DNA of 64,000 nt from the NCBI GenBank assembly GCA_964537135.1, contig CAZHZC010000011.1:59848-123847 (forward strand), given 5' to 3'. This stretch comes from an uncultured Rikenella sp. GTDB taxonomy: Bacteria > Bacteroidota > Bacteroidia > Bacteroidales > VadinHA17. Shown in pieces: positions 23,739 to 37,706 of this stretch (its first letter is position 1; each line of letters starts with the position of its first letter). The notes beneath the pieces were generated by a model. It saw nothing but the letters and a program-made list of their open reading frames with translations. It searched no databases and had not been told where the DNA came from. Made by a program: the position numbers and the translations under genes.

Positions 23739-24956
23739 ATGAGTTATACGGTATGTGAGAGGGAGATTGCCGCACACTTCAGGGGTGGTATGACCGTAGG
23801 GGTGATACCCGGCACCGGGGTGGCCCTCTCTGAAGAGCGGTTCCGGTCAGTGGCAGAGAGACCGTTACCTGAAGGAGAGGAGGTGCCGCGCCTCTTCCGG
23901 CCACTCTTCCGGTCACGAAGCATGGAGGAGGGCAACAGGGAGTTCAGTTACTACATAATGAGACCCGCCGGCTACTGCAATGGTAACGACGGTGCCAGTG
24001 ACAGTATCAGGGACAGCAACGGCAGGGGCAGTAGCAAAAACACCAGCCGCGGTGCCATTATCCTTCTTCACGGCCTTAATGAGCGCAGCTGGGGCAAGTA
24101 TATACAGTGGGGTACCAGGCTGGCAGCCGGCACAGGACGGCCGGTGATACTGTTCCCGCTGGCATGGCACATGAACCGTTCACCGCGCAGCTGGGTAGAC
24201 AGGCACCTGATGATGCCCCTGGTGACAGCCCGTACAGCGCTTGTTCCTGATGCACGGCCCTCTACCTTTGTCAATGTGGCACTGAGCATACGTATGAGCC
24301 TCTCGCCGCAGCTCTTCATGCTGTCAGGGTACCAGTCCGCTGCTGACCTCACCCGGCTGATAGCTATGCTGAGGCAGGGCTCCATACCGGGTATTGGCGC
24401 CGGTGGTGCGCCCGACATCTTTGCCTACTCCATCGGAGCCCTCATGACACAGGTGATGATGCTCTCTGACCCCTCACCGCTGCCTGATGAGAGTCGTGTA
24501 ATGCTCTTCTGCGGAGGGTGTGCCTTCAGCCTGATGCAGGGCACCTCCAAACTGATCATGGACAGCCGTGCCTTTGAGATACTCAACCGGTTTTACCTTG
24601 GCTGGCCTGACGGTGGCACGGGCAGAGGCGGCAAGGAGCTCACCAGGCTGATGAAGGAGACCCCTGAGGGAGAGGCTTTCTATGCGATGACCTCACTGAA
24701 ACGCCTGAAGGAGCTTCGCAACAGTCCGTTCAGCCACTATGGAGAGCGGCTCAAGGTGATAACCTTTGCCGGTGACCGCGTGATACCGCCGGAAGCGGTG
24801 AGGGAGACCCTCAGCGGATGCGACATCGCCACATGGGAGCCCGGCTACCAAGCAACACATGAGATGCCTTTCCCAAACCTTACCGGAGAGAGGGCAGAGG
24901 CGGTAGACCGTTCCTTCGGGAAACTCTTTGATACTGCGGATCGTTTTTTTTCATAA
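23739..24956 (+). CDS. alpha/beta-hydrolase-fold protein of unknown function
   Basis: ILLHGLNERSW (HG oxyanion motif), nucleophile-elbow-like FAYSIGAL, candidate Asp (FAGDRVIP) and His (QATHEMPF). The track start 23694 is a TTG and the first ATG is 23739. Confidence 0.55.
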   Translation: MSYTVCEREIAAHFRGGMTVGVIPGTGVALSEERFRSVAERPLPEGEEVPRLFRPLFRSRSMEEGNREFSYYIMRPAGYCNGNDGASDSIRDSNGRGSSKNTSRGAIILLHGLNERSWGKYIQWGTRLAAGTGRPVILFPLAWHMNRSPRSWVDRHLMMPLVTARTALVPDARPSTFVNVALSIRMSLSPQLFMLSGYQSAADLTRLIAMLRQGSIPGIGAGGAPDIFAYSIGALMTQVMMLSDPSPLPDESRVMLFCGGCAFSLMQGTSKLIMDSRAFEILNRFYLGWPDGGTGRGGKELTRLMKETPEGEAFYAMTSLKRLKELRNSPFSHYGERLKVITFAGDRVIPPEAVRETLSGCDIATWEPGYQATHEMPFPNLTGERAEAVDRSFGKLFDTADRFFS

Positions 24957-25217
24957 TATTGCGGCCTGAACACCCCCTCCCGCTACCCGGAACCCTGGTA
25001 GCCGGGAAATGATCAGGTGGCTGCCGGTAGAGTTTTTGATACTATTAAAACTCTACATAAAGAGTATCCCCTGATAACGCCTTCAAAAATACCTCTACAA
25101 TAAATTTTGCAAGAGACAAGGAATAACGTGTTTACGATTAATTGATAACACTACATTTAAAAATAATCTGAAATTACGCTGTTTCATGGCTCTACATTGC
25201 CCGTTGATTAATAAGCG

Positions 25218-25225
25218 TACCTTTG
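25218..25225 (+). promoter_or_regulatory. -7 promoter box TACCTTTG upstream of the phosphate locus
   Basis: Exact TAnnTTTG inside a ~340-nt AT-rich spacer, 74 nt upstream of the DUF47 ATG (25300). Confidence 0.4.
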
Positions 25226-25299
25226 TAGAGCATATTTTGCAGTGTGATTTAATAAACAGTGTTATTAGATAAACGGCGTAAATATACAAATTCACTATT

Positions 25300-25947
25300 A
25301 TGGCACTTTTCAAACGGGGCGTACAATCAATCGAATACCTTGATCAGTTTATGAATTCCATTGATGAAGGGATGCTGATCTTCAAAGAGGGACTGAAAAA
25401 TTATCTCTTTGGCAATCGCAACAATTTTCTCGACAACCTGCGTACCTTATCTAATCTGGAGACAGAGGCTGACAATATCAAGAGGAAGGTGGAGCAGTTG
25501 CTCTACACCCAGTCGCTGATGCCGCAGCTCCGGGGTGACATTCTGAGGCTGCTCGAAGATCTGGATGATATTATTGACCTGGCCAAGACCAACCTCTTTC
25601 AGTTTGATGTGGAGATTCCTACCATTCCTGCTGAGCTTCACCAGGATTTTATCAAGCTCTCTGAGCTCTCATGCAGTGCGGTAGAGTCGGTTATCCCGGC
25701 AGCAAGGGCCTATTTCCGTGATCCGGAGGCTGTCAATGAGATGATACACCGTGTCTATCTCTACGAAAAGGAGGCAGACAAACTGGCTGATGCCATTAAG
25801 CGCAGGGTATTCCATGAGATGTCAGGCCTGTCGCTGAGCGAGAAATTCCACCTCCGCTATTTCACCCTTCATATCGAGACTCTTTCCGATGCTGCTGAGC
25901 GGGTAGCTGACCTGCTGGCAATCATGGCAGTAAAACGAACTGTTTGA
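25300..25947 (+). CDS. DUF47 / PhoU-like PiT accessory protein
   Basis: 215 aa helical protein directly (14 nt) upstream of a PiT gene. This is the standard DUF47-PiT pairing. Confidence 0.8.
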   Translation: MALFKRGVQSIEYLDQFMNSIDEGMLIFKEGLKNYLFGNRNNFLDNLRTLSNLETEADNIKRKVEQLLYTQSLMPQLRGDILRLLEDLDDIIDLAKTNLFQFDVEIPTIPAELHQDFIKLSELSCSAVESVIPAARAYFRDPEAVNEMIHRVYLYEKEADKLADAIKRRVFHEMSGLSLSEKFHLRYFTLHIETLSDAAERVADLLAIMAVKRTV

Positions 25948-25961
25948 ATCGGGCCTGATCA

Positions 25962-27707
25962 ATGCTGTTTGCTATTTTCATATCGAGTGGTTTGTTTATG
26001 GGCTGGTCCCTCGGGGCCAATGATGCTGCCAGTATCTTCGGTACGGCGGTGGGCTCAAAGATGATCCGCTTCAGAACGGCAGCAATAATAGCCAGCATCT
26101 TTGTCATTATAGGGGCAGTGTTTCAGGGGAAGGGAACATCTGAGACATTGTCAAACCTCAGCTCCATCGATGCCCTTGCCGGTGCATTCACAGTATCTCT
26201 CTGTGCTGCTGCCACCGTATATGCCATGGTCAGCAACGGACTGCCGGTATCAACCACACAGGCCATCGTGGGGGCCATTATCGGGTGGAGTGCATTCAGC
26301 GGGGTAGGGGTAGACTATAACCTCCTCACCAAGATCGTGGTGTCATGGGTTACCAGCCCTCTTCTGGGGGTAATATTTGCTGCCATCCTCTTCATATTGA
26401 TGAGAAAGCTGCTGCGCAGACTGAAGATGCATGTCATTATTCTTGACTCATATATCCGGGTAGGGCTCATCATTGTAGGAGCGTTTGGAGCATATAGCCT
26501 GGGAGCCAATAATATAGCAAACGTGATGGGTGTCTTTTTACCCTCAGCCCCTGACCTGCTTATTGACTTTGGCATCTTTACCCTCGACGGCCAACAGTGG
26601 CTGTTTCTGCTTGGGGGTATGGCCATCTCACTGGGGATCATAACCTACAGCCATAAGGTGATGAACACCGTGGGCAACGGTATATTGTCACTCACACCGG
26701 AGACAGCCATAGTGGTTGTGCTGTCACAGTCAACCGTACTCTTCCTTTTCTCATCAACCGCCTTTGCCGAGATGCTGAGCTCTGTCGGACTGCCCCCACT
26801 GCCGCTGGTCCCTGTCTCAAGCACACAGGTGGTCATCGGCTCACTCCTGGGAATAGGCCTGGTGAAAGGGGTGAGAGAGGTGAACTTCCGTACCCTGGGC
26901 GGAATAGGGCTCGGCTGGATCATCACACCTTTAATATCCGGACTGCTTACCTATCTCGCTCTCTTCTTTGTACAGAATGTTTTCAACCTGCAGGTTACCA
27001 GCACCACACCAATAGGATACCCGGGTCCTGACTTTGTGCTGCCGGAGAAGAGTGCCGTCAATGTCAATGTGGTCCTTCCATTTTTACTCACAGTGGCAGT
27101 GTTGATAATAGCAACGTTGACAGTGCTGCTGGTCAGACAGATGCGGTTAAGACAAAAGGAGATAGACAATCTGCAGATCCATCAGGATAAGATATTCAAT
27201 TTCGAGAAGACATTGAATGACCTGGAGATAAGTACAATACAAAAGGAGAATGAGCTGCTGAACACCAAACTGGAGATAAAGCGCCGTGAGTTTGTTCAGG
27301 TGGCACAGACAATCTCACGTGAAAAGGAGTTTCTGGAGAGCCTGGCAGTGAAGATTGAGAATATGCTGCTCGATGAGAAGGGCAGCGCAGAGGTCAGGGA
27401 GAGCCTGCGGGAGCTGGCTGCCTCCATCAGACAGAAGATGAGCTTCTCAGGTGACCTGGAACAGTTCTATGGACAGATAGAGGAGACCCATGCAGAGTTC
27501 AGGTCAAAACTGACCATGGCCTACCCCGACCTGACACCCCGTGAGATGAAACTGGCAGTGCTCCTTTACCTGGGGTTCTCTACAAAGGAGATCTCCTCGC
27601 TGATAAATATCTCTGCCAAAAGCGTTGAGATAGCTCGCTACCGGCTGAGAAAAAAACTGGACCTCAAAAGAGGTGATAACCTGACAGATATTATTAAATC
27701 CTTATAA
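25962..27707 (+). CDS. PiT-family inorganic phosphate transporter fused to a coiled-coil segment and a C-terminal LuxR/GerE-type HTH
   Basis: Duplicated PiT signature GANDAASIFGTAVGS and GANNIANVMGVF. An extra TM helix is followed by RQMRLRQK, then ~120 aa of heptad-like sequence. The C-terminus LTPREMKLAVLLYLGFSTKEISSLINISAKSVEIARYRLRKKL is a LuxR-type HTH. Confidence 0.8.
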   Translation: MLFAIFISSGLFMGWSLGANDAASIFGTAVGSKMIRFRTAAIIASIFVIIGAVFQGKGTSETLSNLSSIDALAGAFTVSLCAAATVYAMVSNGLPVSTTQAIVGAIIGWSAFSGVGVDYNLLTKIVVSWVTSPLLGVIFAAILFILMRKLLRRLKMHVIILDSYIRVGLIIVGAFGAYSLGANNIANVMGVFLPSAPDLLIDFGIFTLDGQQWLFLLGGMAISLGIITYSHKVMNTVGNGILSLTPETAIVVVLSQSTVLFLFSSTAFAEMLSSVGLPPLPLVPVSSTQVVIGSLLGIGLVKGVREVNFRTLGGIGLGWIITPLISGLLTYLALFFVQNVFNLQVTSTTPIGYPGPDFVLPEKSAVNVNVVLPFLLTVAVLIIATLTVLLVRQMRLRQKEIDNLQIHQDKIFNFEKTLNDLEISTIQKENELLNTKLEIKRREFVQVAQTISREKEFLESLAVKIENMLLDEKGSAEVRESLRELAASIRQKMSFSGDLEQFYGQIEETHAEFRSKLTMAYPDLTPREMKLAVLLYLGFSTKEISSLINISAKSVEIARYRLRKKLDLKRGDNLTDIIKSL

Positions 27708-27731
27708 ATTGTTAAACCAATACTATTCAAA

Positions 27732-29312
27732 ATGAGAAATAATCGTAGAATTCTAATGATGAGCCTTCTAATGGTTATTGCAGGCATATTGCACGCTCAA
27801 ACCAGAAATGTATCAGGGGTAATTACATCTGATGCTGACGGTAAACCTGTTGCAGGAGTTACAGTGAGGCTTAAAGGTGCCCTCACCGCTTCACTCTCTG
27901 ATGCCCAGGGTCTCTATTCGGTGGCTGTGGATGAGAGGTCAACCGAGACACTCATCTTCTCACATCCTGATTATGATGAGATGGAGGTGGTTGTGATCGG
28001 GAAGTCAAAGCTTGACATAGCACTCTCCAGTAATATCAGATATAATCAATATGGTCAGAAGGTTGAACGCACCTCCCTGGCCTCGGAAAGCAGAAACGGC
28101 GTTCTGACCCATGAGGCTGGTGACAAGTCGTTCAAGTTCTGGACCGATATGAGGGTGAATATTGACTATACAAAGCACTTTGACAACTATGACAACAGGC
28201 TGTCACCAACCGGTAATGCACCTGATGCCATACAGCTCTCCGACGGAGCCAGCGTACGACGGGCAAGGGTAGGCTTTAAGGCACAGATAGACAAATGGTA
28301 CGGTGAGGTTGACTTCGACTTCAGAAACCTGGAGGTGGATATTAATGACGCATACCTCCAGTACAGCTTCAGTGACCGGTTTGAGATCAAGGCAGGGCAG
28401 TTCCGTGAGCCTGTCGGACTGATGACCAATACCACCTCACGTTATGTATCATTTATGGAGCGCCCCCTCAGCTCCGAATTGGACCCGAGCAGGCATGTCG
28501 GACTGGGTATTAAGTATATGCATCCCAGGTTCACCAGCGCTATAGGGATCTTCTCGGATGAGGCCTATGGTATTGAAGGAAAGGATACCAGGCGGAAGAA
28601 GAGGGACGGCGTGGAGTCGAGCTGGGCTGCCTCAGGACGCGTGATGGGGTATGCACTCAATCAGGATAACCTCACCCTGGGGATAGGTGTCAGTGGTTCA
28701 TACCGTACACCTACCATAACCGACGAGGGGTATAATACTGTGAGAGTAAGGGTATATGATGAGAACCGTACCTCGCAGAAAAGATTCCTCGATACCGATG
28801 CGGTTAAGAATGTAAAGAGAATCATTCTTGCCAATGGCGAGCTGGCATTTGCTTCCAACTCATTCAGGCTGATGGGTGAATATAAGGTGATGGTACTTGA
28901 CAGGGGCCGCATATATGATGATATCAACTATACAGGGCAGAACCTCGAAGATGTCTACTATAGCGGCTACTACGTCGAGGCAGGCTACCTGCTCTTCGGT
29001 GACAAGGTCAACTTCAACTACAATGACGGAGAGTTTACCCGGGTGGCACCAAAGTCGAAGAGAGGGACTCTTGAAATTGCAGCCCGCTACAGTACCCTGG
29101 AGCTCAATGATGAGAAGGCCCTGGTCTATGGCGGTGCCGCAAAGATCTCATCCCTTTCGCTCACCTACTGGGCTCAGAAGAATGTGAGAGTGACCCTTAA
29201 CGGAGCCTATGTTGATCATGACCAGCACGCCTCAACCAAATACAACTGGCCGGTACCTGCTGACGGATATGACTATTACTGGGTGGGAACCAGGCTGGAG
29301 ATAGATTTTTAG
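27732..29312 (+). CDS. phosphate-selective porin O/P family protein with an N-terminal CarboxypepD_reg-like domain
   Basis: Signal peptide, then VSGVITSDADGKPVAGVTVRLKG...GLYSV (carboxypeptidase-regulatory-like fold). This is followed by Porin_O_P-like SVRRARVGFKAQIDKWYGEVDFDF...DAYLQYSF...IKAGQFREPVGL and a C-terminal aromatic residue. Confidence 0.75.
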   Translation: MRNNRRILMMSLLMVIAGILHAQTRNVSGVITSDADGKPVAGVTVRLKGALTASLSDAQGLYSVAVDERSTETLIFSHPDYDEMEVVVIGKSKLDIALSSNIRYNQYGQKVERTSLASESRNGVLTHEAGDKSFKFWTDMRVNIDYTKHFDNYDNRLSPTGNAPDAIQLSDGASVRRARVGFKAQIDKWYGEVDFDFRNLEVDINDAYLQYSFSDRFEIKAGQFREPVGLMTNTTSRYVSFMERPLSSELDPSRHVGLGIKYMHPRFTSAIGIFSDEAYGIEGKDTRRKKRDGVESSWAASGRVMGYALNQDNLTLGIGVSGSYRTPTITDEGYNTVRVRVYDENRTSQKRFLDTDAVKNVKRIILANGELAFASNSFRLMGEYKVMVLDRGRIYDDINYTGQNLEDVYYSGYYVEAGYLLFGDKVNFNYNDGEFTRVAPKSKRGTLEIAARYSTLELNDEKALVYGGAAKISSLSLTYWAQKNVRVTLNGAYVDHDQHASTKYNWPVPADGYDYYWVGTRLEIDF

Positions 29313-29355
29313 AGAGAGTATAACAGTTTTGTGTAACCATTAAAAACAATTGATA

Positions 29356-30240
29356 ATGAAACGGAATTTATTTTTGATCATAAGCATGGTGCTGATAAGC
29401 ACAGCATTCATTCTGGTGTCATGTGAGGAAGAGAGAAAAGATCCTCCTCTGATTCAGAATGTGAAGTACTCCGGCAAGAATCAGGGCCCCTTTACCGTTG
29501 AGGCCAGGATTCTGGATGATAACGGACCGCTTAAGAGCGCCGAGGTGATGTACAGAAACAGCAGTGAGACAACTTTCCACTCGGTGCAGATGACCAGGGG
29601 CAGTGATGATGAATATTCAGGTGTTATCCCGTCTCAGCCCGCAAATGAGAAGGTTTTCTACTACATCAAGGCAGTCAATTCAGCTGACCTGGTCTCTGTG
29701 GAGCCCAAAGATGCACCCACGGTAACCCTGCAGTTTGAGATTGGTGGCGTTGATTATACCGGACTGGTACTGAATGAGATATGGGCTGGCGGACCGTCTG
29801 ATAACCATAAGTTTATCGAACTGTTCAATACCACCAATGCGCCCATCGACATATCAGGTGTATACTTTGAGCGTAATGCTGAGGGGGTGATCGGAACTGT
29901 CCCGGCAAATACTATCCTGGCTGCCGGTGGCTATTATATTCTCGGAACAAAGAACAATACTTCCAATCCTGAGAATGACGCTGCTCCCTATGATAATTCA
30001 GTCTCAAAAGGCTTCTCAGCCAAAAAGTCGATCCTGTTCCTGGTGATGTCACCCCTGGGGAATGAGATTGACAGGTTCCTGCGTGGTGATGCGGAGAATC
30101 TGGATGTCAACATCAGTGATGTGGCTCCTAAATCTTACTGCAGAATCCCGAACGGAACAGGTGCATGGAAGGCGGTTGACAATGCCACACTGAGGGCAGC
30201 CAATGATGCAACCGGCGCCAGCGACATACCAAATGACTGA
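29356..30240 (+). CDS. lamin-tail-domain (LTD) lipoprotein
   Basis: Lipobox FILVSCEEE. LTD-like LVLNEIWAGGPSDNHKFIELFNTTNAPIDISGVYF. The track start 29350 is a TTG and the ATG is at 29356. Confidence 0.65.
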   Translation: MKRNLFLIISMVLISTAFILVSCEEERKDPPLIQNVKYSGKNQGPFTVEARILDDNGPLKSAEVMYRNSSETTFHSVQMTRGSDDEYSGVIPSQPANEKVFYYIKAVNSADLVSVEPKDAPTVTLQFEIGGVDYTGLVLNEIWAGGPSDNHKFIELFNTTNAPIDISGVYFERNAEGVIGTVPANTILAAGGYYILGTKNNTSNPENDAAPYDNSVSKGFSAKKSILFLVMSPLGNEIDRFLRGDAENLDVNISDVAPKSYCRIPNGTGAWKAVDNATLRAANDATGASDIPND

Positions 30241-30296
30241 GACGACTGATGAGTAGCCGGACAGTCAACCGGCATAATGACATATAGTTATAATCA

Positions 30297-30322
30297 GGCC
30301 GGCAACCACCCGGTTGCCGGCC
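30297..30322. other. perfect 11-bp stem / 4-nt loop hairpin (ggccggcaacc-accc-ggttgccggcc)
   Basis: Read directly. It lies in the 101-nt gap between the LTD gene and the CYTH-like gene and has no U-tract. Confidence 0.7.
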
Positions 30323-30341
30323 ACATAAAACCTTATTACAT

Positions 30342-30983
30342 ATGAGTAAAGAGGAATTGAAGATAGGCGAGATCTCAAAACCGAGATTTGAGTTCCGCTC
30401 GTTCGGGCAGAACTTCGACAATGCAGCCATACGTATGGCACGCCTCTCCGTGCCCGTACCCGAGAAGGTGTGGGAGCGGTTTTCAGACGAGATATATATT
30501 CTCTCCCGTACCAATGATATCAATAATACCAAGATCAGGGACGGCAAGATGGATATAAAAACCTATGTGGGTACCGTAGATGGATTTGAGCAGTGGAACC
30601 CTCTGATGAAGGGTAGCTTTCCGATAAGGAGAGAGGTGCTTGTCAATGAGGTTTTCCCCGCTTTCCAGGTGAAGATGCCTGATATGACCAGCGAGGAGTA
30701 CAGCTACGAGGAATTTATGGAGATAATTTATGCTCACCCCGACCTGCAGGCCGTAAGGGTACATAAGCAACGCTTTGGCTACATGGTCAATAATACCATA
30801 TGTGAATATGGTGAGGTGCTGATCAATGGTGCAAGGGTGGTTACCATAAATTCCGAGTCAACCGAAACGGACGATATCAGGAAGACGGTGAATGACCTTC
30901 AGCTTGAAGGGGTAGAAAACATAAACTACCTGCAGGCTATCAAAAGGGTGATAGGGATGATCAATAAGCCTTTGGCCAATTGA
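30342..30983 (+). CDS. hypothetical protein, possibly a highly divergent CYTH-like (triphosphate tunnel) fold
   Basis: 213 aa. Alternating beta-strand-like charged motifs (RFEFRSF, KIRDGKMDIKTY, RVHKQRFGY, ICEYGEV, TINSES) loosely parallel CYTH strands, but the ExExK signature is degenerate. Sits directly upstream of a canonical CYTH gene. Confidence 0.35.
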   Translation: MSKEELKIGEISKPRFEFRSFGQNFDNAAIRMARLSVPVPEKVWERFSDEIYILSRTNDINNTKIRDGKMDIKTYVGTVDGFEQWNPLMKGSFPIRREVLVNEVFPAFQVKMPDMTSEEYSYEEFMEIIYAHPDLQAVRVHKQRFGYMVNNTICEYGEVLINGARVVTINSESTETDDIRKTVNDLQLEGVENINYLQAIKRVIGMINKPLAN

Positions 30984-31019
30984 TTGTTGTCAGATTGAAA
31001 ATAATTAATTCAAGTAATT

Positions 31020-31487
31020 ATGGCACAGGAGATTGAAAAGAAATTCCTGGTAAAGGGAGATTTCAGGAATGAGGCCGTGAAGGCTATCCGTATAACACAA
31101 GGCTACCTCTCATCTGTTCCTGAACGTACGGTCAGGGTAAGGATAAAGGGGGAGAAGGGTTTTATCACCATCAAAGGAATCGGTGGAGCCTCCGGTGCAA
31201 GCCGGTATGAGTGGGAGAAGGAGATACCCGTGACAGAGGTGGAGGAGCTGCTGAAGATCTGTGAACCGGGTGTCATTGACAAGGTGCGTTACCTGGTACC
31301 ACAGGGAGAGCACACCTTTGAGATTGATGAGTTCCATGGTGAGAATTCAGGCCTGATCGTGGCTGAGGTGGAACTCAGCAGTGAGGATGAGGAATTTAAC
31401 AGACCGGCCTGGCTTGGTGAAGAGGTGACAGGTGACACCAGGTACTATAACTCAATGCTGATGAAGACCCCGTTTACCAAATGGTAA
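31020..31487 (+). CDS. CYTH domain protein (triphosphate tunnel metalloenzyme)
   Basis: N-terminal MAQEIEKKFLV (ExExK), RVRIKGEKGFITIKG, YEWEKEI, KVRY, FEIDEF, VAEVEL. 155 aa. Confidence 0.85.
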   Translation: MAQEIEKKFLVKGDFRNEAVKAIRITQGYLSSVPERTVRVRIKGEKGFITIKGIGGASGASRYEWEKEIPVTEVEELLKICEPGVIDKVRYLVPQGEHTFEIDEFHGENSGLIVAEVELSSEDEEFNRPAWLGEEVTGDTRYYNSMLMKTPFTKW

Positions 31488-31505
31488 CCGCTGAGAGAGC
31501 CTGAC

Positions 31506-33137
31506 ATGTCAGAATCACCAGAAAAGAGTCCTCAGCTCGTGTCAGGGGAGTATGATCCCCTTGACATGAGCAACTACCGGATCGAAAGGCTTGCCAAACG
31601 GGAGAAGGGCAAGGTAGAGAAATGGCTTGCCATAGCAGGGATTCCCCTCGCTTTGGCAGCCTTTATCCTGCTTGGTTTTGTTATTGAGATTCCGTTCCTG
31701 AGACATATTGAGCCGGCACAGCTGGTATCAAAAACCGCCAGAGGAATGTATGAGACACTAGGTGAGACAGGGTTTATAAGAACCAATGCCATAATGCTGG
31801 CTGTATTCGCCGCTGCCCTCATACTCTGGATAACAGAAGCGATACCCAATTATCTCACATCACTGATCATAATTATCAGCCTGGTGCTGACCGGGGTGCT
31901 GCCTGAGAATGAGGCATATGCACAGCTGGGGCACCCCGTCATGTGGCTGAACATTATGTCATTTGTACTTGCCAGCATGCTGGTGTCAACCGGGGTGGCC
32001 AAACGGTTTGCCCTGTGGTTTATCGTCACCTTCGGCAAGAATGCCGGATCAATCTTTATAAGCTTCTTAATTATCAACCTGATCCTCTCGATCTTTATAT
32101 CAGCAACAACTGCCAAGGCGGCCATACTGTTACCCGTCTTTATGGTTATTGCTGCAATTTATGGCTCCAGGCCCGGTACTGACAGGAACAATTTTGGCAG
32201 AAGCCTGGTGCTTCAGAACCTGTTGAATATCAATGTGGGGGCAGGACTCCTGCTGACGGGGTCGGGTGCCAACCTGCTGGCTGCTGCCCTGATAGGGGGA
32301 GCTATAGGAAGCAGGGTCTATTTCTCAGACTGGATGTACTCACAGGTGCCGGTAACCATTGCCATCATGTTTATCGGATACTGGCTGGCTATGAAGGTTT
32401 TCTTTCCGCTGAAGCCGGAAGAGCGGACACCACGCATTGAAGGGGGTATGGAGCGTCTGCAGGGCGAGTTGCAGAAGCTGGGCAGGATGAGTATGCAGGA
32501 GAAGAAGGCAATAGTGATATTTGTGCTTATACTGGCCTTCTGGGCAACCGACCGCCTGCACGGTGTCAGCGCCACCGCGGTGGCCTTCGTGGGGGGTATT
32601 GTGGCCCTGATGCCCAAAATTGGCATCGTCAGGTGGAAGGATGTGGATATACCATGGCACCTGATGCTCTTCTCAGCAGGTGCCTATACACTGGGGGCCG
32701 GGTTTGACTATACTGACCTGCCGTCACTGAGTGTCAATGCACTCTTTGACCACCTCGGACTGGGCAGCGGAACACCATTCTGGGTGCTCTATCTGATGCT
32801 GACCGGATTTATGATGTTCAGCTCCCTGATCTTTCAGTCAAAGACAATGAGGGCAATGGTATTCATCCCCATAGCAATCGGCGTGGCAAACCGGTTTGGA
32901 TTCAGCGTCATCAGCCTGGCAATGCCGGTGGCATTCATGATAAACCATGTATATGTGCTGCCCTTTAACAGCAAACCGGCAGTGCTGCTCTATGAGACAG
33001 ATCAGTACTCATTGTCTGACACATTTAAATATGGTATTACTGTTATGACAATTGCGTGGATTCTCAATATCATAGCAGGAGAGACCTGGTATAAGCTGCT
33101 GGGGATCACACCCGACGGTGTGTTCGGACTGTTCTGA
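31506..33137 (+). CDS. SLC13/DASS-family anion permease
   Basis: 543 aa polytopic protein. WITEAIPNYLTSL and a second-half repeat FVGGIVALMP...SAGAYTLG fit the divalent-anion:Na+ symporter architecture. Confidence 0.7.
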   Translation: MSESPEKSPQLVSGEYDPLDMSNYRIERLAKREKGKVEKWLAIAGIPLALAAFILLGFVIEIPFLRHIEPAQLVSKTARGMYETLGETGFIRTNAIMLAVFAAALILWITEAIPNYLTSLIIIISLVLTGVLPENEAYAQLGHPVMWLNIMSFVLASMLVSTGVAKRFALWFIVTFGKNAGSIFISFLIINLILSIFISATTAKAAILLPVFMVIAAIYGSRPGTDRNNFGRSLVLQNLLNINVGAGLLLTGSGANLLAAALIGGAIGSRVYFSDWMYSQVPVTIAIMFIGYWLAMKVFFPLKPEERTPRIEGGMERLQGELQKLGRMSMQEKKAIVIFVLILAFWATDRLHGVSATAVAFVGGIVALMPKIGIVRWKDVDIPWHLMLFSAGAYTLGAGFDYTDLPSLSVNALFDHLGLGSGTPFWVLYLMLTGFMMFSSLIFQSKTMRAMVFIPIAIGVANRFGFSVISLAMPVAFMINHVYVLPFNSKPAVLLYETDQYSLSDTFKYGITVMTIAWILNIIAGETWYKLLGITPDGVFGLF

Positions 33138-33151
33138 CAATGCCGTCCGCC

Positions 33152-33178
33152 ATCCGCCAGCTGGCGGATTCTCTTCTT
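33152..33178 (+). terminator. candidate intrinsic terminator after the SLC13 gene
   Basis: 7-bp stem atccgcc-agct-ggcggat followed by the pyrimidine/T-rich tctcttctt, 15 nt after the stop codon. Confidence 0.5.
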
Positions 33179-33185
33179 AAATGAG

Positions 33186-33193
33186 TACTTTTG
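33186..33193 (+). promoter_or_regulatory. -7 promoter box TACTTTTG upstream of the LD-carboxypeptidase gene
   Basis: Exact TAnnTTTG, 21 nt upstream of the ATG at 33215. Confidence 0.45.
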
Positions 33194-33214
33194 GGAGTGT
33201 CACCAAACCAATGA

Positions 33215-34129
33215 ATGATGAGCAGCCTTGTCATACCACCCTATCTCACTGAGGGAGATCGTATTGAGATAATCTCGCCGGCAAGTCATATCGATGAGGA
33301 GCTTGTCAATCAGGCCTCTGCCATGCTTGAGCGGTCAGGATTCCGGGTCACCTACGGGAAGCACCTCTTCTCACGTAGCGGTCCGTTTGCCGGCAGTGAT
33401 GAGGAGCGGCTGAGTGATATACAGCGTGCCACTGATGACCCGGATGTGAAGGCGGTGCTCTGCTCGCGCGGCGGGTATGGCATGACACGGATCGTTGACC
33501 GTATCGACTTCACCGCGCTGGAGCGTAAGCCCAAGTGGTATGTGGGATACAGTGATATCACCTCACTGCACATGTGGCTCAGCAATGTATGCGGCATCGC
33601 CTCACTGCATGCCGAGATGCCGCTGAACTATCCTGACCCGGCCTGCCTGCCGCCATCATACGACACCATGGTAGAGGCACTGCGTGGCGAGGCGGCGCCG
33701 GTGAGATGGAGCCCGGGGAGCGAAGGGTCATACACCCTCTCGGGGCGCTTTACCGGGGGAAATATCTCGCTGCTCTACAGCCTGCACGGTACGGTGGCAC
33801 AGCCCGATACCGACGGGGCAATACTCTTCATCGAGGATATAGGGGAGAAGTACTACCATCTTGACCGCATGCTGGTCTCAATGCGGCTGGCCGGACTGCT
33901 CAGCAACCTGTCGGCACTGGTGGTGGGAGGGATGGAGAAGGTCACCGAGGGTGAACATGTCTTCAACCAGACGGTGGAGGAGGTGGTGATGAACGTGGTG
34001 GGGAGGTATGACTACCCGGTGCTGTTCAACTTCCCGGCAGGGCATATACCTGACAACAGGGCGCTCTACCTGGGACGTCAGGCATCACTCACACATGACG
34101 GTGCCACGGCACGGCTCACCTGGCTCTGA
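33215..34129 (+). CDS. ldcA: LD-carboxypeptidase (peptidase S66)
   Basis: GYSDITSLH nucleophile motif, C-terminal FPAGH. 304 aa. Confidence 0.85.
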   Translation: MMSSLVIPPYLTEGDRIEIISPASHIDEELVNQASAMLERSGFRVTYGKHLFSRSGPFAGSDEERLSDIQRATDDPDVKAVLCSRGGYGMTRIVDRIDFTALERKPKWYVGYSDITSLHMWLSNVCGIASLHAEMPLNYPDPACLPPSYDTMVEALRGEAAPVRWSPGSEGSYTLSGRFTGGNISLLYSLHGTVAQPDTDGAILFIEDIGEKYYHLDRMLVSMRLAGLLSNLSALVVGGMEKVTEGEHVFNQTVEEVVMNVVGRYDYPVLFNFPAGHIPDNRALYLGRQASLTHDGATARLTWL

Positions 34130-36152: not shown

Positions 36153-37706
36153 TCAGACCGGTTCAAGGTACACCAGGGGGAGCAGCATCTCCTGCAGCGA
36201 GATGCCTCCGTGCTGAAAGGAGTCGCGGTAATAGGTGACCACCTGGTTGTAGTTGTTGGGGTAGACCAGGAAGTCACTGGCGCAGGCAAAGATATAGCGT
36301 GAGGTGATGTTGACGGCCGGCAGCCCGGCATCAGAGGGGTTGGTTATCTCAAACACCTCACGTGGGTTGTAGTCGAGGTTCCTGCCGCTCTTGTAACGCA
36401 GGTTCATGGAGGTGTGCCGGTCTCCTACCACCCTGACAGGCTTCTGTACCCGTACCGACCCGTGGTCGGTGGTGATCACCACCCGTGCGCCGCGGGCTGA
36501 GACCAGACGCAGCAGCTCCATCAGCGGTGAGTGAATAAACCAGGTGTGGGTGAGGGTGAGCCATGAGGCCTCATCACCGGTCATGTCACGTAACAGACCT
36601 ATCTCGGTGCGGGCATGGCTGAGCAGGTCGACGAAGTTGTAGACCAGCACGTTGAGATCATTGGCCATCAGCTGTGGCAGCCGCTCATTGAGTGTCCGCC
36701 CCTCACTGTCAGAGCTGATCTTGTGGTAGCTCCAGCGGCAGTCGACACCTGCCCGCAGCATGTTCTTGCCCATCAGCTTCTCCTCATTGAGGTTCTTACC
36801 CTCATCTTCATGCTCATCAACCCAGTACTCAGGCATCAGCTCACCGATGGCTGCCGGCATCAGTCCGGCAAAGAGCGCATTGCGCGAGTATTGTGTGGTG
36901 GTGGGCAGTATGCTCAGGTAGAGCTCCTCATCGACGGTGCGCATCACCTGTCTCAGGTCACCGGCGATGGTCTGCCACTGGTCGAGCCTCATGTTGTCAA
37001 TGAGGATAAAGAAGAGGGGTGACTCACGGCTTATCATGGGGAAGATACGCCTGGTCAGCAGTGCCGGTGACATGAGTGGTCGCTCATCTGCCCCGGAGGC
37101 TAACCATCTGAGGTAGCTGGAGGAGATATATCTGGCAAAGGCCCTGTTGGCGTCAGCCTCCTGTGAGCGCAGCACCTCACGCATGCCGGTGTCTGATGAT
37201 CTGATCAGCTCACCCTGCCAGAAGGTGAGGCGCCGGTAGAGGTCACACCACTCCTCAAAGGATGAGGCGGAGGAGATCATATCGGTGATCTGGCTGAACT
37301 CCTCCCTGAAGATGGTGGTGGTCTGGCGGGTGACGATCTCCTCCAGGTTGAGGATACGCTTCAGTGTAAGCAGTATCTGTCCCGGCTTGACCGGCTTGAT
37401 GAGATAGTCAGCTATCTGTGACCCTATGGCAGCATCCATGATATCCTCCTCTTCGCTCTTGGTGATCATGACCACCGGGATGGAGGGTCTGAGCGCCTTG
37501 ATACGGCGCAGTGTCTCAATACCGCTCAGGCCGGGCATATGCTCATCAAGGAAGATAATGTCATAGGGCCGCTCTCTCACCATGACAATGGCGTCATTGC
37601 CTGAGTGGCAGGTCTCGGTCACAAACCCTTTCTCGGTAAGGAAGAGGATATAGGGTTTGAGCACCCCGATCTCATCATCAACCCATAAGATTCGTATCTC
37701 CCTCAT
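36153..37706 (-). CDS. porX: response regulator with a PglZ/alkaline-phosphatase-like output domain (PorX-type, T9SS-associated)
   Basis: CheY receiver (ILWVDDE...IIFLDEHMPGLSG...K) plus a ~390 aa PglZ-like C-domain. 517 aa with tsaE downstream, as in other Bacteroidota. Confidence 0.8.
   Translation of the reverse strand: MREIRILWVDDEIGVLKPYILFLTEKGFVTETCHSGNDAIVMVRERPYDIIFLDEHMPGLSGIETLRRIKALRPSIPVVMITKSEEEDIMDAAIGSQIADYLIKPVKPGQILLTLKRILNLEEIVTRQTTTIFREEFSQITDMISSASSFEEWCDLYRRLTFWQGELIRSSDTGMREVLRSQEADANRAFARYISSSYLRWLASGADERPLMSPALLTRRIFPMISRESPLFFILIDNMRLDQWQTIAGDLRQVMRTVDEELYLSILPTTTQYSRNALFAGLMPAAIGELMPEYWVDEHEDEGKNLNEEKLMGKNMLRAGVDCRWSYHKISSDSEGRTLNERLPQLMANDLNVLVYNFVDLLSHARTEIGLLRDMTGDEASWLTLTHTWFIHSPLMELLRLVSARGARVVITTDHGSVRVQKPVRVVGDRHTSMNLRYKSGRNLDYNPREVFEITNPSDAGLPAVNITSRYIFACASDFLVYPNNYNQVVTYYRDSFQHGGISLQEMLLPLVYLEPV

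Follow-up and report, generated by a model that had tools for sequence, protein, structure and literature searches.

A conserved seven-gene locus of Bacteroidota and relatives as a candidate system for condensed-phosphate acquisition

The 64,000-nt stretch of DNA analysed here, from an uncultured Rikenella sp. (contig CAZHZC010000011.1; the whole stretch is called the window), carries a locus of seven genes, g1 to g7, encoding two inner-membrane carriers, an outer-membrane porin, a lipoprotein, a PhoU_div protein and two putative triphosphate-tunnel proteins (Table 1). The seven genes are a real, conserved functional unit. A sequence-only reading had proposed them as a candidate condensed-phosphate utilisation system. 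Its description of the layout was correct: seven co-directional genes occupied 25300-33137 of the plus strand, and the gaps of 14, 24, 43, 101, 36 and 18 nt agreed with the open reading frame list, with the ATG at 29356 taken as the start of g4. The spacer before g1 (24957-25299, 343 nt) was AT-rich as described, the bin 25001-26000 having the lowest GC content of the window (0.435 vs. ~0.54), and the expected hairpin and T-rich tail were present downstream of g7. Pfam searches returned six of the proposed domain assignments, namely: PhoU_div, PHO4 with GerE, Porin_O_P, LTD (lamin-tail domain), CYTH, and DASS. For g5, no model matched.

Table 1. Genes and sequence features of the locus, in window coordinates.
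Feature	Position	Strand	Description
Heptamer array	25051-25196	+	CTCTACA at 25051, 25093 and 25190; CACTACA at 25149
TAnnTTTG box	25218-25225	+	TACCTTTG; only perfect plus-strand copy in the spacer; 82 nt before the g1 ATG
Tandem direct repeats	25240-25273	+	17 nt, two copies, CAGTGTGATTTAATAAA / CAGTGTTATTAGATAAA; between the TAnnTTTG box and the g1 start
g1	25300-25947	+	215 aa; PhoU_div/DUF47 protein
g2	25962-27707	+	581 aa; PiT carrier with LuxR/GerE domain
g3	27732-29312	+	526 aa; OprO/OprP-family outer-membrane anion porin
g4	29356-30240	+	294 aa (alternative start 29350, 296 aa); LTD lipoprotein
GC-rich hairpin	30297-30322	+	GGCCGGCAACC-ACCC-GGTTGCCGGCC; perfect 11-bp stem in the g4-g5 spacer
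g5	30342-30983	+	213 aa; predicted cytoplasmic tunnel-fold protein
g6	31020-31487	+	155 aa; CYTH/TTM enzyme by sequence
g7	31506-33137	+	543 aa; DASS/SLC13-family inner-membrane anion carrier
Terminator-like hairpin and tail	33152-33179	+	ATCCGCCAGCTGGCGGAT, then T-rich tail TCTCTTCTTA; starts 15 nt past the g7 stop

Conservation of the seven-gene unit

Genomes of 185,579 species, one for each, were scanned; at least 556 species contained a relative of g5, and the best 80 of these were used for locus comparison. They belonged to the following: Bacteroidales, Chitinophagaceae, Saprospiraceae, Flavobacteriales (e.g., Cloacibacterium rupense), Balneolales, and others. When the seven window proteins were searched against these loci by tblastn, the order g1 to g7 was kept in nearly every locus of sufficient length for the full set. 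The gene set thus recurred in dozens of species, as the claim of a conserved unit demanded, and because synteny recurs, chance juxtaposition is excluded.

Identity of the relatives to the window proteins ranged from ~80% for g5, a level kept across Bacteroidota classes, and ~77% for g6 through 57-77% for g7, ~65% for g1 and 44-68% for g2 to ~33% for g3 and ~30% for g4. Constraint is therefore much stronger on the cytoplasmic and inner-membrane proteins than on those exposed at the envelope. Identities of g5 at codon positions 1, 2 and 3 were 0.85, 0.89 and 0.39, with synonymous sites saturated. Recent horizontal transfer as the source of the high g5 identity was rejected on the third-position value, which therefore indicates ancient divergence under very strong purifying selection.

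The same content was found in the order g5-g6-g7-g1-PiT-porin-LTD in Ignavibacteria, Balneolales and another lineage. The Ignavibacterium locus comprised genes for a g5-like protein, CYTH, DASS, PhoU_div, PiT, Porin_O_P, LTD, a phytase-like beta-propeller and an LTD protein tagged for the type IX secretion system (T9SS). In another lineage the order was: g5-like, CYTH, DASS, unknown gene, PhoU_div, PiT, unknown gene, and second DASS.

Several additional genes accompanied the unit in relatives. A membrane protein of ~485 aa was encoded directly after the DASS gene in 41 of 83 related loci (e.g., L010:12785-14248, L006:9746-11020); it had no Pfam or NCBIfam match and, by tblastn, no homologue in the window. 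The post-DASS position was taken in 11 other loci by a membrane protein of ~920 aa (e.g., L001:13214-15979, L002:13100-15862), which had no family match and was unrelated to the 485-aa family by BLASTP. A lipoprotein of ~250 aa matching SdiA-regulated/Phytase-like beta-propeller models was present in 31 related loci, and also in Ignavibacteria, and was absent from the window. Its gene lay in either the g4-g5 or the g6-g7 interval (e.g., L002:9196-9990, L024:11196-11945, L089:17186-17956). Adenylate kinase genes lay within or beside the locus in ~19 species; about half were head-to-tail doubles (e.g., single gene at L006:11181-11759; tandem fusions of ~388 aa at L022:12916-14082 and L034:11392-12561).

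Predicted proteins of the locus

The sequence-only reading had counted two CYTH-type proteins. For g6 this was confirmed; g5 was not a CYTH protein by sequence and lacked the ExExK motif, while its predicted structure resembled that of triphosphate tunnel metalloenzymes (TTM). Neither as a single sequence nor as a 101-member profile did g5 match Pfam, NCBIfam or a PDB sequence. No Pfam hits were found among the 101 family members, and profile-profile comparison of the g5 and g6 families revealed no similarity (hhalign probability 0.2%). The g5 family contained 1051 representatives at E <=0.001 in a search of 1.84 billion cluster representatives. An AlphaFold2 model built from 101 diverse members had eight strands, with a predicted local distance difference test score (pLDDT) of 95.7 and a predicted template-modelling (TM) score (pTM) of 0.90. 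The top Foldseek hits of this model in the PDB were all TTM/CYTH proteins (probability 1.00, E from 5e-6, TM score 0.4-0.55, ~10% identity) and included: BH2851, HpAC1, thiamine triphosphatase, AtTTM3, SaTTM, class IV adenylate cyclase, and RNA triphosphatases. The fold of g5 is thus predicted with high confidence to be an eight-stranded triphosphate tunnel of the TTM/CYTH kind.

Six residues of g5 were invariant in the family: E17, R19, Y52, K73, P94, and K142. Strand 1 read R15-x-E17-x-R19 (94, 101 and 101 of 101 sequences), all three being invariant or near-invariant tunnel residues, so that RxExR replaced ExExK. Strand 8 carried Ala, Cys, Ser or Asn at position 170 and then E172, a single Glu instead of ExE. 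The remaining tunnel residues were assigned to strand 3 (K64, R66), strand 4 (K73), strand 5 (E83), strand 6 (K142, R144), and strand 7 (E155). The conserved basic and acidic residues occupied alternate positions of the eight strands, in an order that paralleled the NeuTTM-type tunnel residues of g6. According to the model, g5 is a new sequence family inside the predicted tunnel fold, with the triphosphate-binding basic residues kept and half of the canonical metal ligands left. It may be a hydrolase, another type of enzyme, or a binding subunit.

In distant relatives a g5-like gene overlapped a 154-aa CYTH gene by 16 nt; in another a Ppx-GppA gene began 13 nt after the g5-like gene, and in a third (P0270) the g5-like protein was fused to a Ppx-GppA domain. 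Many distant relatives were annotated as exopolyphosphatase by the Joint Genome Institute. The shuffled gene order with kept content, together with the Ppx-GppA fusion, is a classical indication of functional coupling and ties g5 to polyphosphate (polyP) or triphosphate hydrolysis.

The g6 protein matched CYTH (PF01928; 58.6 bits vs. a cutoff of 23.2, E 9e-16) and aligned over its full length with Nitrosomonas NE1496 (PDB 3typ/2fbl; E 1e-21), the characterised triphosphatase NeuTTM, which is specific for inorganic triphosphate. The ExExK motif was present as EIEKKF (E4-I-E6-K-K8), and this motif as well as R39/R41, K52, K88/R90 and E116/E118 aligned with NE1496 and were invariant in an alignment of six sequences. 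By sequence, g6 is a canonical CYTH/TTM enzyme and a close relative of NeuTTM. The sequence-only reading is supported in part: its condensed-phosphate theme is strengthened by the kinship of g6 with NE1496 and by the g5 family standing beside, or fused to, Ppx/GppA exopolyphosphatase.

The g3 protein matched Porin_O_P (PF07396; 115.2 bits vs. a cutoff of 20.9, E 5.5e-33), and its N-terminus contained a signal peptide and a CarbopepD_reg_2 (SusC-type) domain (E 1.1e-8). It had been called an OprO/P-type porin and likened to OprO. The OprO label was not upheld: the score was better against OprP (2o4v, E 5e-7) than against OprO (E 2e-4), and Arg and Lys/Arg stood at the positions that distinguish the two, unlike either. 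This pair, positions 62 and 114, is Tyr/Tyr in OprP and Phe62/Asp114 in OprO, and separates the one porin from the other. R179 and K/R225 of g3 occupied these positions in 64 of 65 orthologs each. At the OprP constriction set (R34, R59/R60, S125, K126 and R133), the aligned g3 residues were near-invariant for R34, R59/R60, S125 and R133, and K126 was replaced by Arg, across the same 65 orthologs, which were otherwise ~33% identical.

The LTD match of g4 (E 1.8e-13) was a C-terminal lamin-tail domain. In the translation, a signal peptide and the lipobox LVSC precede the acidic stretch EEERKD; a run of acidic residues in this place, next to the lipidated Cys, is reminiscent of the surface-export signal of Bacteroidota lipoproteins. 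In relatives, g4 always followed the porin gene.

The g7 carrier passed TIGR00785 (201.1 bits vs. a cutoff of 198.6) and Na_sulph_symp (PF00939; 190.3 vs. 27, E 8.5e-56), and had an N-terminal extension of ~90 aa. In VcINDY, two Ser-Asn-Thr (SNT) motifs at hairpin tips bind Na+ and substrate. These were missing from g7, which had SATTAK and SKTMR instead, both invariant in 66 orthologs; a third motif was NSKP. Four basic residues at the SNT/PPN positions of VcINDY (K/R204, K446, R449 and K490) were also invariant in the 66 orthologs, including those of the second locus type described below (type B), and the chloroplast exchanger DiT1 had Arg at the K204 position. With Lys or Arg in its binding-site motifs at positions where relatives that couple to Na+ carry Asn, g7 may work as a Na+-independent uniporter or as an exchanger for orthophosphate (Pi).

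The g1 protein matched PhoU_div (PF01865; 76.4 bits vs. a cutoff of 24.4, E 2.7e-21) and scored below the cutoff of TIGR00153. PhoU_div/DUF47 proteins are the usual partners of PiT carriers, and g1 directly preceded PiT in every locus that had g1. In g2, the PiT core comprised aa 1-345 (PHO4, 217 bits, E 4.5e-64; E 3e-28 against Thermotoga maritima PiT, TmPiT, PDB 6l85). The first PiT signature kept its Asp (GANDAAS); the second was GANNIAN, an exchange of Asp for Asn found in 43 of 44 locus-linked PiTs. Past the core were a poorly conserved linker, an extra transmembrane helix (~aa 368-392), the basic stretch RQMRLRQKE, a predicted helical linker and a GerE helix-turn-helix (aa 524-569, nt 27531-27668; 32.4 bits vs. 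a cutoff of 23.5, E 7.3e-8), which was the best-conserved part of the C-terminal tail. By the positive-inside rule, RQMRLRQKE after the extra helix would place the helix-turn-helix in the cytoplasm. Residues 378-573 weakly matched the C-terminal 190 residues of the NCBIfam "BT3442 family protein" (E 4e-7, far below cutoff). The match suggests that a module of transmembrane helix, helical linker and LuxR domain is common to other Bacteroides membrane regulators.

Taken together, the residue patterns of porin, DASS carrier and PiT suggest tuning to an anion of higher charge than that of Pi or of dicarboxylates, and transport that is possibly uncoupled from Na+.

Upstream motifs, locus types and boundaries

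A heptamer, C[TA][CAT]TACA (CTCTACA, CACTACA, CTATACA), was found by k-mer counting in 53 distinct regions upstream of g1. These regions contained 125 forward and 27 reverse copies, against 13.4 +/- 3.5 in shuffles. Preferred positions were approximately -200, -157 and -102 from the g1 ATG, sometimes as pairs spaced by 11 bp. Apart from the four-heptamer array, the 64-kb window had no cluster of at least three heptamers, and 23 of the 27 clusters in 1.41 Mb of related loci were situated upstream of g1. A role as a general Pho box is unlikely, given that the heptamers cluster almost only there. The array is a candidate operator of the locus regulator. A small heptamer cluster was also seen before the gene of the ~485-aa membrane protein in three loci (L039, L043 and L053, near 12650).

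TAnnTTTG is the -7 promoter consensus of Bacteroidota, and the window contained 31 matches vs. 15.9 expected. A box had been noted before at 25218, and a perfect match is there, but its position differs from that of the box conserved in relatives. In 26 of 53 upstream regions the latter was at approximately -30 to -37, i.e., ~33 nt from the ATG and ~70 nt past the proximal heptamer, whereas only 28 nt separate the window box, a putative promoter element, from the last heptamer upstream of it. A scan with sigma70-type promoters gave no more matches than shuffles, the sigma70 model being ill-suited to Bacteroidota.

Two types of locus were found, and their regulatory features never mixed. Type A, to which the window belongs, had g1 first, the PiT-LuxR fusion and heptamers, no linked sensor genes and no sigma54-type promoter; 46 of 53 type A loci had two or more heptamers. 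Type B (Ignavibacteria, Balneolales and others) had g5 first, a PiT without LuxR tail (497 aa in Ignavibacterium) and no heptamers. Type B loci contained divergent genes for a PhnD-like binding protein, a histidine kinase and a sigma54 regulator, and a sigma54-type promoter, GGCAC-N5-TTGC, preceded g5 in 8 of 8 cases. The six upstream regions inspected (L089:9755-10000, L093:9700-10000, L058, L063, L079 and L078) had two to four GGCGAnATATCGCC-like palindromes in the interval from the divergent sensor genes to g5; these are probably enhancer sites of the sigma54 regulator.

Heptamers were absent both from the sigma54-type loci and from loci without g1 and g2. In the latter, genes upstream of g3 were considered as alternative regulators and rejected, as they encoded unrelated peptidases or an ATPase. 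We infer that the LuxR tail of g2 would be the dedicated regulator of type A, binding the heptamers. A regulatory role for PiT-LuxR, as first suggested from the sequence, fits the co-occurrence of fusion and heptamers and the replacement by a three-component sensor where PiT has no LuxR tail. With either PiT-LuxR and heptamers or a PhnD-like three-component system at hand, the locus would have dedicated sensing rather than only PhoBR.

Indirect signs of a single operon were present: one strand, gaps of at most 101 nt, and one terminator-like site after g7 (7-bp stem, 4-nt loop and 5 G-C pairs at 33152-33169, then the T-rich tail). On this layout, g1 to g7 would be co-transcribed as one operon. 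There was also a strong hairpin in the g4-g5 gap. This spacer folded with a minimum free energy of -39.7 kcal/mol (z -6.2), and values below -25 were found in the 100 nt before g5 in 25 of 81 related loci. The hairpin may be an internal attenuator or an element of mRNA stability or processing, and may let the envelope and the cytoplasmic genes be expressed separately. An Rfam search of 24800-33400 returned no riboswitch and no other RNA family.

Flanking genes varied among related loci. Upstream, LytTR and DUF6051 genes had no phosphate connection; downstream, LD-carboxypeptidase, alanine-dehydrogenase-like, TsaE and response regulator genes were unrelated to phosphate. The response regulator (517 aa, 36153-37706, minus strand, 3 kb downstream) carried a PglZ domain, an architecture that matches PorX, a regulator of type IX secretion. 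Its neighbourhood was not conserved in relatives.

Candidate function and comparison with known systems

With a probability of roughly 0.5, the seven genes are a self-regulated unit of the Fibrobacterota-Chlorobiota-Bacteroidota (FCB) group that acquires inorganic phosphate anions, and in the likeliest case short condensed phosphates: tripolyphosphate and perhaps also pyrophosphate or short polyP. The sequence patterns favour uptake of a highly charged condensed phosphate. For this unit we infer a substrate, a direction of transport, enzyme activities, a heptamer-binding protein and co-transcription as follows. The surface LTD lipoprotein g4 would capture or present the polyanion; many relatives also have the phytase-like propeller lipoprotein. 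The anion would then pass the outer membrane through the g3 porin, whose constriction has two extra basic residues, and would be imported across the inner membrane by g7, acting as a Na+-independent uniporter or Pi exchanger. In the cytoplasm, g6 would cleave it as a NeuTTM-type triphosphatase, with g5 as a divergent but extremely conserved partner, either a second hydrolase or a subunit. PiT (g2) and PhoU_div (g1) would carry or sense Pi or a related anion, and the cytoplasmic LuxR domain of g2 would probably activate the operon from the CTCTACA-type heptamer array. The presence of two different inner-membrane carriers points to more than one transported species.

Several points weigh against condensed-phosphate acquisition. 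Every transporter family of the locus also has members that carry Pi or sulfate; in NCBIfam the g2 PiT domain scored highest against a CysP sulfate-permease model, at a value far under the cutoff. Channels of the OprP type are narrow, and g3 is nearer to OprP than to OprO. The residue arguments are drawn from alignments of ~20% identity, anchored in conserved blocks. As one Glu of each metal-binding ExE pair is missing, g5 may not be a hydrolase. Some relatives lack g1 and g2 altogether, and the adenylate kinases, which link related loci to nucleotide metabolism, and the two membrane-protein families of these loci are left unexplained.

A joint and more specific form of condensed-phosphate acquisition, which we consider distinctly unlikely, combines a heteromeric two-tunnel enzyme of g5 and g6 with a Na+-independent, Lys/Arg-lined DASS exchanger, the two working together directly, so that imported tri- or short polyphosphate would undergo more than simple hydrolysis: the energy of its phosphoanhydride bonds would be captured or the anion exchanged against Pi. 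Transfer of a phosphoryl group to AMP or ADP is one way in which the energy might be captured, and it would account for the adenylate kinases, single or tandem, of related loci; PiT-LuxR would then be a bacterial "transceptor" reading the flux through the carrier. If this were true, environmental condensed phosphate would be a source of both phosphorus and energy for bacteria of the FCB group.

A possible but doubtful alternative is that the locus serves the uptake and homeostasis of Pi only, the tunnel proteins having a housekeeping function (removal of stray triphosphate) or acting on the carriers as regulators or as sensors of phosphate status. Classical Pi families are represented by PHO4, PhoU_div and Porin_O_P, and the yeast DASS proteins Pho87/90/91 carry Pi. 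The closeness of g3 to Pi-selective OprP points the same way, and the loss of half its metal ligands would suit a binding or regulatory role for g5. However, this account leaves several findings unexplained. Nothing else in the unit is as conserved as the two tunnel proteins, whose genes stay beside that of DASS even in loci with a shuffled order, and g5 relatives are paired or fused with Ppx-GppA. The porin and DASS sites are also more basic than those of relatives that transport Pi or dicarboxylates, and the system has ligand-sensing regulators of its own.

Use of organic or inositol polyphosphates (extracellular nucleoside triphosphates (NTPs), thiamine triphosphate or phytate), with surface hydrolases freeing a small product for import, is very unlikely. 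The propeller lipoprotein of 31 related loci and the adenylate kinases of ~19 would suit it, but the window has neither gene. TTM enzymes include NTP- and thiamine-triphosphate-specific members, and such proteins were among the fold matches of g5, but the closest characterised relative of g6 is specific for inorganic triphosphate. LTD domains often accompany secreted nucleases and phosphatases; however, neither nucleotides nor phytate would fit through the narrow pores of OprP-type porins, and no genes of nucleoside or inositol catabolism were linked to the locus.

The least probable account is one of efflux and turnover, in which the carriers release Pi, pyrophosphate or short polyP made by the tunnel enzymes from internal polyP and the porin is the exit through the outer membrane: PiT mediates Pi efflux during anaerobic phosphorus release by polyphosphate-accumulating organisms, record names and contexts suggest a sludge, digester or sediment origin for several of the metagenome-assembled genomes with the locus, and relatives of g5 are associated with an enzyme of intracellular polyP, PPX, but no ppk gene was linked, and surface lipoproteins, T9SS-secreted LTD proteins and a periplasmic binding-protein sensor point to the capture of an external ligand.

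A full-text literature search found no description of the locus, of the g5 family or of the PiT-LuxR fusion. Metabolism of polyP has been considered limited to intracellular cycling (PMC13318637), direct uptake of short polyP chains has been mentioned only as a possibility (PMC9303572), and the routes by which exogenous polyP is used are regarded as unresolved (PMC9303572, PMC13318637). Tri- and polyphosphates also serve as fertilisers and food additives. Bacterial use of external condensed phosphates is poorly understood. The locus is a genetically tractable candidate, with a g5 relative in the genomes of at least 556 FCB-group species. If its function were confirmed, it would provide a new route in the phosphorus cycle and functions for several unnamed families.

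Each part of the unit resembles a known protein and departs from it. Compared with OprP and OprO of Pseudomonas aeruginosa (PDB 2o4v, 4rjw), g3 aligned over the whole barrel with the constriction residues conserved, but was only ~20% identical, had the N-terminal CarboxypepD_reg domain and carried Arg and Lys/Arg at positions 62 and 114. It is also encoded together with its own carriers and enzymes, whereas OprP and OprO are lone genes of the Pho regulon. The whole transport domain of g7 aligned with DASS/SLC13 carriers (VcINDY, plant DiT1), but g7 differs in its replaced SNT motifs and four invariant basic residues and has no close relative in the PDB; unlike its functional analogues in yeast, the SPX-DASS Pi carriers Pho87/90/91, it has no SPX domain.

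Among the tunnel proteins, g6 has the length and the ExExK, RxR, K and ExE motifs of NeuTTM and CthTTM. The g5 protein shares with them a predicted eight-stranded tunnel, but has RxExR, a single strand-8 Glu and no similarity to the CYTH profile. Unlike NeuTTM and CthTTM, g5 and g6 form a conserved pair; we know of no description of a two-TTM pair of this kind. The g1-g2 pair resembles other DUF47-PiT pairs and TmPiT in adjacency, PHO4 domain and first GANDxxN signature. The locus-linked PiT subfamily differs from TmPiT in having Asn for the Asp of the second signature, and in Bacteroidota g2 differs from known PiT proteins in its fused transmembrane helix, helical linker and LuxR helix-turn-helix, which would give a membrane-tethered one-component regulator.

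Three-component sensing of an oxyanion has a precedent in AioX-AioS-AioR (PMC7565993). Type B loci share its three-gene architecture of binding protein (here PhnD-like), histidine kinase and sigma54 regulator. Unlike AioXSR, no arsenic genes are linked to the locus, and the window has PiT-LuxR in place of the three-component system.

As a whole, the locus is comparable to polysaccharide utilisation loci of the SusCD type and to the Flavobacterium "phosphate utilisation system" PusCD (PMC8115612), although the Flavobacterium Pho-regulon loci of that paper are different ones, and it describes no Pho box. In common with these systems, one putative operon unites a lipoprotein at the cell surface, a channel in the outer membrane, carriers in the inner membrane, enzymes of the cytoplasm and a dedicated membrane-spanning regulator, and the SusC-type N-terminal domain of g3 is shared with SusCD-type loci. 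In contrast to them, the channel is a diffusion porin instead of a TonB-dependent SusC, there is no SusD, and the target would be an inorganic anion rather than a glycan or organophosphate. The locus may thus be described as a nutrient-acquisition operon assembled from known transporter families, its new parts being the tunnel-fold family, the fusion of carrier and transcription factor, and the two interchangeable sensing modules.

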